A stretch of 64,000 nt of DNA from Escherichia coli (GTDB lineage: Bacteria > Pseudomonadota > Gammaproteobacteria > Enterobacterales > Enterobacteriaceae). A program made the translations under genes and the position numbers. Within the stretch, counting starts at the first letter, position 1; each line of letters begins with the position of its first letter. This document shows, piece by piece, positions 1-57,976 of this stretch. The stretch is taken from assembly GCF_048403405.1 (NCBI RefSeq), contig NZ_CP183129.1; one strand, written 5' to 3'. Under the pieces are notes generated by a model that saw only the letters and a list, made by a program, of their open reading frames with translations, was not told the DNA's origin and made no database searches.

Positions 1-455
1 CTCAACGTGATACTTTTCAGCATTCCCGTAATTTCACGATGTAAACGCGCTTCAATCGGCAAGATTTTCGGTATTTTTATCGCACCATCAAGGACTTTTA
101 TGCCAACACAATGATAGCTCGATTGTCTGCCGTGTTTACTTTTAAAGGTTGGTTTACCTGCTTTCAGTTTCGGATTGAAAAAGTTAGAAAAAGCCACGTC
201 GAGGTTAATTACCGCCTGCTGCAACGCAATAGAATCATATTCTTTAAGCCATCCATACCGGCGGGATTTCTTCGCCACTGCAAGCAGTGGTTTGAGGTCT
301 TTACGCGGGTTTAAATTTACGCGGTGCCGCTGGTAAGAATGTTTCTTGATATGCAGAGCTTTGTTGTACGCAAAACGCACTGCACCGAACTGGGCGTTGA
401 TAAATTCAGCCTGTTCTGGTGTCGGGTAGATGCGTACTTTTGTTGCTCTTAACAT
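1..455 (-). CDS. tnpB: IS200/IS605-family TnpB (OrfB, RuvC-like RNA-guided nuclease family), N-terminal ~151 codons only; 3' part lies beyond the window start
   Basis: Minus-strand frame open from ATG (revcomp of 453-455) to the window edge with no stop; translation MLRATKVRIYPTPEQAEFINAQFGAVRFAYNKALHIKKHSYQ... resembles the OrfB_IS605 N-terminal domain. Absent from the ORF track because it has no stop inside the window. Confidence 0.7.
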   Translation of the reverse strand, partial: MLRATKVRIYPTPEQAEFINAQFGAVRFAYNKALHIKKHSYQRHRVNLNPRKDLKPLLAVAKKSRRYGWLKEYDSIALQQAVINLDVAFSNFFNPKLKAGKPTFKSKHGRQSSYHCVGIKVLDGAIKIPKILPIEARLHREITGMLKSITL

Positions 456-511: not shown

Positions 512-937
512 TTGAGTAATCATGATGATTTACTGGCGGGATTCCTCCGCAAACGACACAGTGTCAGTAAGCTGGTTGTGCACCTTATTTTTACGACAAA
601 GTATCGACGTAAACTATTCGACAGTCAGATGATCGCTCAGTTGCGTGAGGCTTTTGGCTCCGCTGCGGCAAAGCTTGAATGCGAAATTATTGAGATGGAC
701 GGGGAGCCAGACCATGTACACCTGCTGGTTGCCTACCCGCCAAAACTGGCGGTCAGTGTGATGGTCAATAATTTAAAATCGGTATCATCACGTTTGCTAC
801 GCCAGCAGAACGCGCATTTACGTATGCAGAGTAAAACGGGGCTTTTGTGGTCGAGATCGTACTTTGTCTGTAGCACCGGAGAGGCAACGATTGAAACGCT
901 CAGAGCCTACGTTCAGAGTCAGTCAACACCTGATTGA
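512..937 (+). CDS. tnpA: IS200-like Y1 HUH transposase TnpA
   Basis: 141-aa ORF with an HVHLLV (HuH) motif and a C-terminal Tyr region (SRSYFV), size typical of IS200 TnpA; divergent from tnpB. Start at TTG 512 is uncertain. Confidence 0.8.
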   Translation: MSNHDDLLAGFLRKRHSVSKLVVHLIFTTKYRRKLFDSQMIAQLREAFGSAAAKLECEIIEMDGEPDHVHLLVAYPPKLAVSVMVNNLKSVSSRLLRQQNAHLRMQSKTGLLWSRSYFVCSTGEATIETLRAYVQSQSTPD

Positions 938-39361: not shown

Positions 39362-39400
39362 ATCTTAAGAGTATGCCCTGAGAAAAAAAGGAGTCGCATC

Positions 39401-40002: not shown

Positions 40003-40029
40003 AGAAACAGCGGCTGGTCCGCTGTTTCT
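40003..40029. promoter_or_regulatory. Perfect 11-bp inverted repeat (AGAAACAGCGG-ctggtc-CCGCTGTTTCT) containing a FadR-operator-like CTGGTCCGCTGTTT; also a candidate yeaY terminator stem
   Basis: Palindrome read directly; similarity to the FadR consensus ANCTGGTCNGAYNTGTT; position upstream of fadD. Confidence 0.45.
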
Positions 40030-40097
40030 GCATTCTTACGGTAAAGATAAAAATAAATAGTGACGCGCTTCGCAACCTTTTCGTTGGGTAATTATCA

Positions 40098-40114
40098 AGC
40101 TGGTATGATGAGTT
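40098..40114 (+). promoter_or_regulatory. FadR operator-like site AGCTGGTATGATGAGTT in the fadD promoter
   Basis: Match to the FadR consensus about 75 bp upstream of the fadD TTG start; fadD repression by FadR is established. Confidence 0.5.
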
Positions 40115-40186
40115 AATATTATGTTAACGGCATGTATATCATTTGGGGTTGCGATGACGACGAACACGCATTTTAGAGGTGAAGAA

Positions 40187-41871
40187 TTGAAGAAGGTTTG
40201 GCTTAACCGTTATCCCGCGGACGTTCCGACGGAGATCAACCCTGACCGTTATCAATCTCTGGTAGATATGTTTGAGCAGTCGGTCGCGCGCTATGCCGAT
40301 CAACCCGCGTTTGTGAATATGGGGGAGGTGATGACCTTCCGCAAACTGGAAGAACGCAGTCGCGCGTTTGCCGCTTATTTGCAACAAGGGTTGGGACTGA
40401 AGAAAGGCGATCGCGTTGCGTTGATGATGCCTAATTTATTGCAATATCCGGTGGCGCTGTTTGGCATTTTGCGTGCCGGGATGATCGTTGTAAACGTTAA
40501 CCCGTTGTATACCCCGCGTGAGCTTGAGCATCAGCTTAACGATAGCGGCGCATCGGCGATTGTTATCGTGTCTAACTTTGCCCACACTCTGGAAAAAGTG
40601 GTTGATAAAACCGCCGTTCAGCACGTAATTCTGACCCGTATGGGCGATCAGCTATCTACGGCAAAAGGCACGGTAGTCAATTTCGTTGTTAAATACATCA
40701 AGCGTCTGGTGCCGAAATACCATCTGCCAGATGCCATTTCATTTCGTAGCGCCCTGCACAACGGCTACCGGATGCAGTACGTCAAACCCGAACTGGTGCC
40801 GGAAGATTTAGCTTTCCTGCAATACACCGGCGGTACCACTGGTGTGGCGAAAGGCGCGATGCTGACTCACCGCAATATGCTGGCGAACCTGGAACAGGTT
40901 AACGCGACCTATGGTCCGCTGTTGCATCCGGGCAAAGAGCTGGTGGTGACGGCGCTGCCGCTGTATCACATTTTTGCCCTGACCATTAACTGCCTGCTGT
41001 TTATCGAACTGGGGGGCAGAACCTGCTTATCACTAATCCGCGCGATATTCCTGGGTTGGTAAAAGAGTTAGCGAAATATCCGTTTACCGCTATCACTGGC
41101 GTTAACACCTTGTTCAATGCGTTGCTGAACAATAAAGAGTTCCAGCAGCTGGATTTCTCCAGTCTGCATCTTTCCGCAGGCGGAGGGATGCCTGTTCAGC
41201 AAGTGGTGGCAGAACGTTGGGTGAAACTGACTGGACAGTATCTGCTGGAAGGTTATGGCCTGACCGAGTGTGCGCCGCTGGTCAGCGTTAACCCGTATGA
41301 TATTGATTATCATAGCGGTAGCATCGGTTTGCCGGTGCCATCGACGGAAGCCAAACTGGTGGATGACGACGACAACGAAGTACCACCGGGTCAACCGGGT
41401 GAGCTTTGTGTCAAAGGGCCGCAGGTGATGCTGGGTTACTGGCAGCGTCCGGATGCTACCGATGAAATCATCAAAAATGGCTGGTTACACACCGGCGACA
41501 TCGCGGTGATGGATGAAGAAGGATTCCTGCGTATTGTCGATCGCAAAAAAGACATGATTCTGGTTTCCGGTTTTAACGTCTATCCCAACGAGATTGAAGA
41601 TGTCGTCATGCAGCATCCTGGCGTACAGGAAGTCGCGGCTGTTGGCGTACCTTCCGGCTCCAGTGGTGAAGCGGTGAAAATCTTCGTAGTGAAAAAAGAT
41701 CCATCGCTTACCGAAGAGTCACTGGTGACTTTTTGCCGCCGTCAGCTCACGGGCTACAAAGTACCGAAGTTGGTGGAGTTTCGTGATGAGTTACCGAAAT
41801 CTAACGTCGGAAAAATTTTGCGACGAGAATTACGTGACGAAGCGCGCGGCAAAGTGGACAATAAAGCCTGA
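40187..41871 (+). pseudogene. fadD: Long-chain acyl-CoA synthetase FadD, interrupted by a -1 frameshift in a G6 run at 41011-41016 (premature stop at 41060-41062)
   Basis: Two ORFs (40121-41062 and 41056-41871) in different frames each encode a contiguous part of FadD (...[13 protein letters not shown] | [22 protein letters not shown]...); restoring one G rejoins them. TTG start at 40187. Confidence 0.85.
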
Positions 41872-41917
41872 GCGTTAAGTCAGTCGTCAGACGCCGGTTA
41901 ATCCGGCGTTTTTTTTG
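41830..41917 (+). ncRNA. sroD: sRNA SroD, derived from the fadD 3' end; boundaries approximate
   Basis: Established sRNA annotated at the fadD 3' end / fadD-rnd intergenic region in K-12, ending at the fadD terminator; placement from recalled annotation. Confidence 0.35.
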
Positions 41918-41918
41918 A
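41889..41918 (+). terminator. Rho-independent terminator of fadD
   Basis: ACGCCGG-ttaat-CCGGCGT followed by T8. Confidence 0.8.
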
Positions 41919-41940
41919 CGCCCACTAAAGAGAATACAAT

Positions 41941-56625: not shown

Positions 56626-57976
56626 TCATGAACGGCTGTTTTTGTTCTGCTTATTGACATATAAACGCTCATCGGAAGCTTTATACGCATCATGTAACGT
56701 ATCGTTTTCTTTCATCGCGTAAATACCGGAAGAGAAGCCGATCTCTTTCTGCGGCGCGATATGTTGCAGACGTTTTTCGATACGTTCAGGCAGTTGTGCT
56801 GCAATTTGCGGCGTCGAATCGACTAGAATGATGCAGAATTCATCGCCACCGAGTCGGATGGCATAATCACTTTTACGAATCGACTGTTTAATCGCCTGAG
56901 CTAATAACGTAATCGCTAAATCCCCCTCCTGATGACCGAGGGTGTCATTTATTTGCTTTAACTTGTCCATGTCAATTGCAATAAACATCACCGAAGAACC
57001 GGATTGCACCAGTTTTTGCAACCGCTGCTCCAGTTCAGGGGTTAAAATTTTGCGATTATACAGTCCTGTCATCGCATCACTAATATTTTCTCGCGACACA
57101 TTTTGGTATAAACGGAAGTGCATCCGCACCATATTCAGCAAAATTAACGCCGTCAAAATCCAGAACAGAACGCTTTTCCACGAAGACGTGATAAAGTAAA
57201 GAATATCAATGGATAACGAGACACGAATGCCGCCCGGTAAGTCATGGACGTAACTGACATACTGGAACAGATTATCTTCGCTCTGGTTGATGATAATGTC
57301 GCGCCCCGAATCGGTATCGGTTAGCGTGACATTGAGAAAACGCCAGAGGAGAGGGCGGTCATGAGTGTAAAAGATATTCCGCAGATTGTTTTTGTTAATA
57401 TCCAGCAGCACAATCCCTTTTAGCTGCCCTGCGACATATACCGGCGTCAGCAAACTCATCACGTTCTGTTTAGTACGCTGATCCTGGTAAATGCTCGATA
57501 AAACGGTACGCCCGGTAAATACCTTTTCAATATCTTTGCGATCGATGCCAATACTTCCTGACTGCAGGAAAGACCAGTTATTCATCGCAAAGTACTCAAC
57601 ATTAACCGGCTCATAAAAATAGACATAGCGGTCATTGAGATCGAGATAATAGTGAAATTTCTCGTCGGCCATCCCAAGACCTGAACCGTAATCATCCTGG
57701 TGGCGGTTGCCTTCCACTGCCTGATCAAAAGCGGGTAATAGTGCTGCAGCTTCCACAATTGTGTCGCAGTCAGTGGATGCGGTTTGTAGTGTGCCGCGTA
57801 AGCCAGGGTATTTATGGGCAGTCAGGTTTAAGCCATGGGTATTATTTGCAGACTCAAAAGCCTCGCAGATGGTGCGCCGCTGTTCTGGCGACAAGTTCAA
57901 AAATAAGGAAGGAAGATGTCAGCACAATGACACTTGCGGCGATAAAATGCCGGAGCATTCTATGGTGCAATTTCAT
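56626..57976 (-). pseudogene. dgcJ: Diguanylate cyclase DgcJ (YeaJ), disrupted: the N-terminal 30 codons are out of frame with the body, consistent with a ~140-bp internal deletion
   Basis: ATG at 57976 has a strong AAGGAG ribosome-binding site and encodes MKLHHRMLRHFIAASVIVLTSSFLIFELVA, then 11 out-of-frame codons and a stop at 57854. The GGDEF body (SPEQRR...RLGGDEF...) is in another frame with only an internal TTG at 57900. Confidence 0.65.

Follow-up and report, generated by a model that had tools for sequence, protein, structure and literature searches.

In the 64,000-nucleotide stretch of Escherichia coli DNA analysed here (the window), fadD is split into two reading frames by the loss of a single G from a poly-G tract. 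The tract is G6 in the context ...TTTATCGAACTGGGGGGCAGAACCTGC... (in a longer read-out ...CTGCTGTTTATCGAACTGGGGGGCAGAACCTGCTT..., with a G count of 6), whereas the closest genomes carry G7 in a gene that is otherwise the same. This bears out the earlier note on this DNA, which had described a fadD split at the tract by one lost base and had named two possible causes, a true inactivating mutation and a sequencing error in the homopolymer. Both halves of that alternative stand, and the analysis narrows the choice between them. Overall, we consider it somewhat probable that the lesion is a genuine, recent loss-of-function mutation in fadD; we infer that the base is truly missing from the DNA of the cell, and the phenotype with it.

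The interrupted gene leaves the FadD frame after residue 277 and terminates early, while the remainder of the gene continues in the original frame from the first base after the run (Table 1). The positions given before for the run and for the premature stop are correct. The number of aberrant codons is 14 and not 16, and the 18-mer GAACTGGGGGGCAGAACC, quoted at 41005-41022, sits one base further on. As mechanically called, the ORF of the N-terminal fragment reaches back to an ATG at 40121 and encodes 313 residues; an exact-product lookup found no record of the 291-residue form that begins at the true TTG. In the downstream frame, the earliest possible start is a TTG that overlaps the upstream stop, and no ribosome-binding site is evident there. 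The two frames are not a chance pair of ORFs, since the window matches the intact fadD of 25 complete genomes over 1801 bp apart from one gap.

Table 1 Features of the window, and fadD lesions of other public contigs placed on window coordinates.
Feature	Position	Strand	Remark
ISEc46 element (IS200/IS605 family), left edge	~1-455	-	
ISEc46 element (IS200/IS605 family), left edge	512-937	+	
Private SNP	544		synonymous, tnpA
Private SNP	18886		yebQ P258S
A7 run	39377-39383		just 5' of the yeaY start (39401), beside GGAG
FadR-operator-like sequences	~40013-40029 and ~40097-40113		upstream of fadD; GCTGGTCCGCTGTTTCT and AGCTGGTATGATGAGTT; likeness seen by eye
N-terminal fadD fragment	40187-41062	+	opens at TTG 40187; residues 1-277 authentic FadD, reaching ...CLLFIELGG, then 14 aberrant out-of-frame codons; TAA at 41060-41062
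Lesion in public contig L023	40321		-G; the same contig has -T at 40971
Lesion in public contig L015	40512		-C, along with G6
Lesion in public contig L018	40936-40939		4-bp deletion; the same contig has +A at 40789
Lesion in public contig L016	40939		+A
Lesion in public contig L019	41003		-A
Lesion in public contig L021	near 41006		+A
18-mer across the lesion	41006-41023		GAACTGGGGGGCAGAACC
G6 run	41011-41016	+	lesion site
fadD remainder, original frame	41017-41871	+	resumes at C 41017; residues 278-561, ending ...GKVDNKA; normal stop 41869-41871
Earliest start in the downstream frame	41056	+	TTG; 271-residue ORF; overlap with the upstream stop reads TTGGTAA
Intrinsic-terminator-like hairpin and T run	41889-41919	+	hairpin 41889-41911, 3' of fadD; by consensus scan only
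rnd start	41941		
Private SNP	46590		yeaV V107G; AAC6 to AC7, a new C7 run
Private SNP	51463		dgcP H327R
dgcJ, largest remaining ORF	56626-57900	-	ancestral gene of 496 residues in MS 69-1
Private SNP	57664		dgcJ E to D
dgcJ deletion junction	57885-57893		two copies of the 9-bp direct repeat CTGGCGACA

The gene order tsaB-yeaY-fadD-rnd is that of annotated complete genomes. The terminator-like hairpin downstream of fadD would make the gene its own transcription unit, separate from rnd, and a polar effect on rnd is not expected, given the predicted terminator and the position of the rnd start. Two FadR operator sites have been described for the fadD promoter, and we take the two FadR-operator-like sequences upstream of the gene to be their candidate counterparts. 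They do not differ from those of intact relatives, so the regulation of the broken gene should be unchanged. Upstream of yeaY lies a second homopolymer in the region with a lineage-variable length: the A7 run in Table 1 is common to MS 69-1, TUM1226, 4621 and CFSAN061763 and is A6 in most other E. coli examined. The ISEc46 element at the left edge comprises tnpA and a TnpB/InsQ gene truncated by the window end; its coordinates are taken from the annotation of MS 69-1, which is near-identical here.

Membership of the FadD family was judged with the NCBIfam equivalog NF006523, which has a curated cut-off of 884 bits, and by a full-length match. Adding one G to the run in silico gives, as the earlier note had proposed, an uninterrupted FadD of 561 residues, which scores 1172.4 bits over positions 1-560 of 561 and lies above the cut-off. 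The N fragment (593.7 bits, profile positions 1-281) and the C fragment (532 bits, positions 291-560) both fall under it. The 271-residue downstream product matches Pfam PF00501 and PF13193. By these scores the locus is a disrupted fadD, predicted not to be a working member of the family.

The position of the break also divides the catalytic motifs between the two products. The P-loop (residues 213-224) is on the N fragment, and GYGLTE (residues 356-361), the acyl-CoA synthetase signature (residues 431-455) and the C-terminal domain are all in the other frame. The break after residue 277 falls between the P-loop and GYGLTE, well ahead of the acyl-CoA synthetase signature, and the split gene does not place the ATP/AMP motifs and this signature on one polypeptide, as expected of a family member. 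The roles of the motifs follow in part the literature cited in PMC9329746. Among solved structures, the closest homologues are adenylate-forming ligases; one of them, the Thermus long-chain acyl-CoA synthetase 1ULT, can be aligned over residues 21-554. Neither fadD piece would be expected to be active.

The run length in other E. coli fadD alleles, to which the earlier note had pointed as a check, is informative. A 1801-bp fadD query matches in 5,425 of the 5,426 complete E. coli genomes, and the best 25 are identical to the window over the whole query except for a one-base gap in the G run. In the closest genomes (MS 69-1, TUM1226, 4621 and CFSAN061763), the tract reads CTG GGG GGG CAG, that is, G7; in the more distant alleles of most E. 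coli it reads CTG GGT GGG CAG, that is, GGGTGGG. The exact G7 67-mer, with 30-nt flanks, is found in 136 of the 5,426 complete genomes, while the exact G6 66-mer is found in a single one, strain B1.H1.18. Nearly every complete E. coli genome has an intact fadD. In MS 69-1, TUM1226 and 4621 it encodes the full enzyme of 561 residues (WP_000758422.1, long-chain-fatty-acid--CoA ligase FadD) from a gene with seven Gs, where the window has six, and both the gene and its yeaY-fadD-rnd flanks are otherwise the same. MS 69-1 (USA; CP146675) and TUM1226 (Japan; CP135719) are identical to one another over 64.6 kb, and were therefore taken as the ancestral state.

When a run differs by one base from that of the closest relatives, and these are intact and otherwise identical, the pattern is that of slipped-strand mutation. 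As read from these alignments, a synonymous GGT-to-GGG change had made the G7 tract, and the lesion is its contraction to G6. In the proposed sequence of events, this change in the lineage would have turned the codons of Gly276-Gly277 into G7, and replication slippage on the terminal branch to the strain would then have dropped one G. Translation would exit the FadD frame past residue 277 and halt 14 codons on. The N piece would retain the P-loop and lack GYGLTE, the acyl-CoA synthetase signature and the C-terminal domain, and neither a good start nor the P-loop would be present in the downstream piece. No active long-chain acyl-CoA synthetase would be made.

The main alternative is a homopolymer sequencing or consensus error, by which the strain would truly carry G7 and a functional fadD, one G having been lost in basecalling or polishing. 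We hold this to be quite possible, though short of probable. In the ancestral 64 kb, the G7 of fadD is the only G or C homopolymer of at least 7 bases, and the one length discrepancy of the window thus falls at its most error-prone position (for 454, Ion Torrent, PacBio and Nanopore consensus). That fadD is intact in nearly all complete genomes, with the G6 form so rare among them, also fits an error. Against this, the rest of the window carries no such signature. The equivalent 64 kb from MS 69-1, TUM1226 and 4621 was compared with the window, which holds 76 homopolymers of at least 6 bases, including 21 of 7-8 bases. The other 75 match the reference lengths, except for one C run that was lengthened by a substitution, with no indel; the 20 A or T runs of 7-8 bases are all unchanged in length. 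The stability of these 75 runs indicates an assembly without a general deletion-prone signature. Error-prone contigs, in contrast, carry roughly 1-5 extra indels per 10-20 kb.

The private branch of the strain argues in the same direction. Relative to MS 69-1 and TUM1226, the window has five private SNPs, of which four are nonsynonymous, and a single 1-bp indel, the missing G of fadD; it has also lost 140 bp within dgcJ. The branch of strain 4621, its sister, is comparable, with four private SNPs. A collection of 15 billion proteins has no record of the YeaV V107G or the DgcP H327R variant. The possibility that the private SNPs are consensus errors was considered and rejected: none of the five lies at a GATC (Dam) or CCWGG (Dcm) site, and two of them lengthen an adjacent run, roughly the number expected by chance. 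The dgcJ deletion is private, shifts the frame and lies between the two copies of a 9-bp direct repeat; it is absent from all complete E. coli genomes listed for that locus. It is not a sequencing-type error, and with it the terminal branch that carries the fadD lesion has a second broken gene. The clean 64 kb, in which the fadD indel stands alone against the ancestral state and the other homopolymer lengths are kept, and a genuine private branch of ordinary length that includes the dgcJ-breaking deletion, therefore argue for a real mutation in fadD. The same G6 in apparently clean assemblies of other backgrounds (B1.H1.18 and contigs L024 and L038) is a third argument for it.

Public data show how often the G6 form recurs. 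By exact-product lookup, the 313-residue N fragment of the window is found on 13 contigs, and the same frameshift on 215 contigs with a B1.H1.18-type haplotype and on 44 with a third haplotype (CTAGGGGGCAG), while the +1 frameshift products are found on 10 and 2 contigs. The -1 products therefore stand on 272 contigs against 12 for the +1 products, a strong bias that fits deletion-biased basecalling. The 271-residue C-terminal ORF has 395 blocks on record. G6 is present on at least five fadD haplotypes and is never clade-defining; its occurrence on scattered tips, within clones that are mostly G7, also favours an error. On the B1.H1.18-type haplotype, the intact protein, whose genes are not all G7, accounts for 14,634 blocks against 219 for the G6 form; the common fadD allele (P0031) has 83,802 blocks. 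Contig L057 and 21 similar places carry G7 with zero mismatches to B1.H1.18 over 21.7 kb. We considered whether G6 might be a fixed clone marker on this haplotype, given its 215 contigs, and this is ruled out by the 14,634 intact blocks and by the G7 clone-mates with zero mismatches.

The public G6 calls go strongly together with deletion-prone read sets. We examined 17 G6 contigs with a length of 10 kb or more: 11 have further indels, mostly homopolymer deletions, and of the six clean contigs, four belong to projects in which sibling runs have such errors. Runs from the same project (SRR30896xxx; ERR10114xxx/ERR104478xx; DRR393xxx) all have G6 and differ in their other deletions, which fits a systematic error at G7 combined with random errors elsewhere. 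Such an error is not automatic, however, since the error-rich assembly of contig L059 retains G7. Contigs L024 and L038, both with G6, are clean over 20.9 kb and 17.5 kb. B1.H1.18 has no homopolymer-length error in 48 kb, save for the lineage-variable A6/A7 site, and its second frameshift, in yobH, lies outside any homopolymer. Its fadD (NZ_CP146564.1, V8955_RS04290 and V8955_RS26260) is annotated by PGAP as 'frameshifted' and shares with the window the position of the G6, the identical 66-mer and the same split. It differs from the window by 12 SNPs within fadD and has 98.6% identity over 5 kb, and its clone-mates carry G7; the different haplotype makes it an independent event or an independent error.

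Two further observations concern these public genomes. Public contigs, as assembled, have many other independent fadD lesions, among them those of six contigs at window coordinates 40321-41008 (Table 1). Separately, in a large E. coli clone, yeaV, which encodes a BCCT transporter, is interrupted by an internal stop, giving products of 382 and 104 residues (19064-20674 in L033, the B1.H1.18 contig). The stop is also present in L034, L035, L037, L038, L041, L057 and L059, that is, in most of the examined contigs that match B1.H1.18 closely, both G7 and G6, and by its distribution it looks like a genuine inherited nonsense mutation. Our literature search found nothing specific on natural fadD frameshifts or on the G tract in E. 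coli.

A broader reading, which we regard as unlikely, is that the G7 tract is a lineage-specific hot spot at which real G7-to-G6 contractions recur independently in several E. coli lineages, the present strain among them, and switch off fatty-acid activation repeatedly and reversibly. If it holds, a core metabolic gene would owe a quasi-contingency locus to a silent substitution, perhaps with a transient benefit in some niches.

Finally, it is very improbable that the frameshift is bypassed or used, either through low-level -1 ribosomal slippage or transcriptional slippage on the G run, by which some full-length FadD would still be made, or as a reversible G7/G6 contingency switch for fatty-acid use. 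The 0-frame CTG GGG GGC formally matches the slippery pattern X_XXY_YYZ (as G_GGG_GGC), and a -1 shift would bring back ...ELGGQ..., as in the wild type. However, the 84 nt past the tract fold no better than shuffled sequences (z = +0.84), with no stimulatory RNA structure, and the frameshifted arrangement is not conserved: the closest relatives, with at least 136 genomes, are in frame with G7, and most others are in frame with GGGTGGG. G-only heptamers are also poor slippery sites in E. coli. A switch could draw on the presence of both G7 and G6 within one clone and of both -1 and +1 variants in public data, but the G6 form is rare and on tips only, and much of the apparent switching is confounded by read errors. 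Moreover, the phase-variable loci known to us have tracts longer than 6-7 Gs.

If the mutation is real, as we favour, its consequences may be predicted by analogy with engineered mutants. When fadD is deleted, cells no longer grow aerobically on fatty acids, whatever the chain length, with FadK as a weak anaerobic backup (PMC9329746), and the viability of E. coli fadD mutants drops in stationary phase (PMC7232532). The strain would then show no aerobic growth on oleate or other fatty acids, a build-up of free fatty acids, poorer stationary-phase survival and a weak anaerobic backup by FadK. Such a cost would explain why the off state stays on the tips. Together with the private dgcJ deletion, the fadD lesion would point to a lineage in which gene losses are building up. 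If the missing base is instead an error, the G7 tract, carried by at least 136 of 5,426 complete genomes, is a spot where assemblies tend to report a false fadD pseudogene. The locus is mildly notable for the silent substitution that gave a core gene a fragile G7, at which one may expect genuine slippage as well as false pseudogene calls.

The lesion is of a known kind, a routine single-gene defect and not a new system, and one public genome already has a pseudogene annotation for the identical allele. The poly-G/C contingency loci of Neisseria, Haemophilus and Campylobacter typically have longer tracts, switch at high frequency and have both states under selection. In fadD, as in these loci, the length of a coding homopolymer moves the gene in and out of frame. 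The fadD tract differs from theirs in having 6-7 bases and an off state that is rare and found on tips alone, and nothing in the data points to selection. The expected outcome for the window fadD is the same as for the fadD nulls of laboratory E. coli K-12, made by deletion or insertion (PMC9329746, PMC7232532). Those alleles were engineered or selected, whereas the window allele would be a spontaneous one-base contraction, which could revert by regaining a G.
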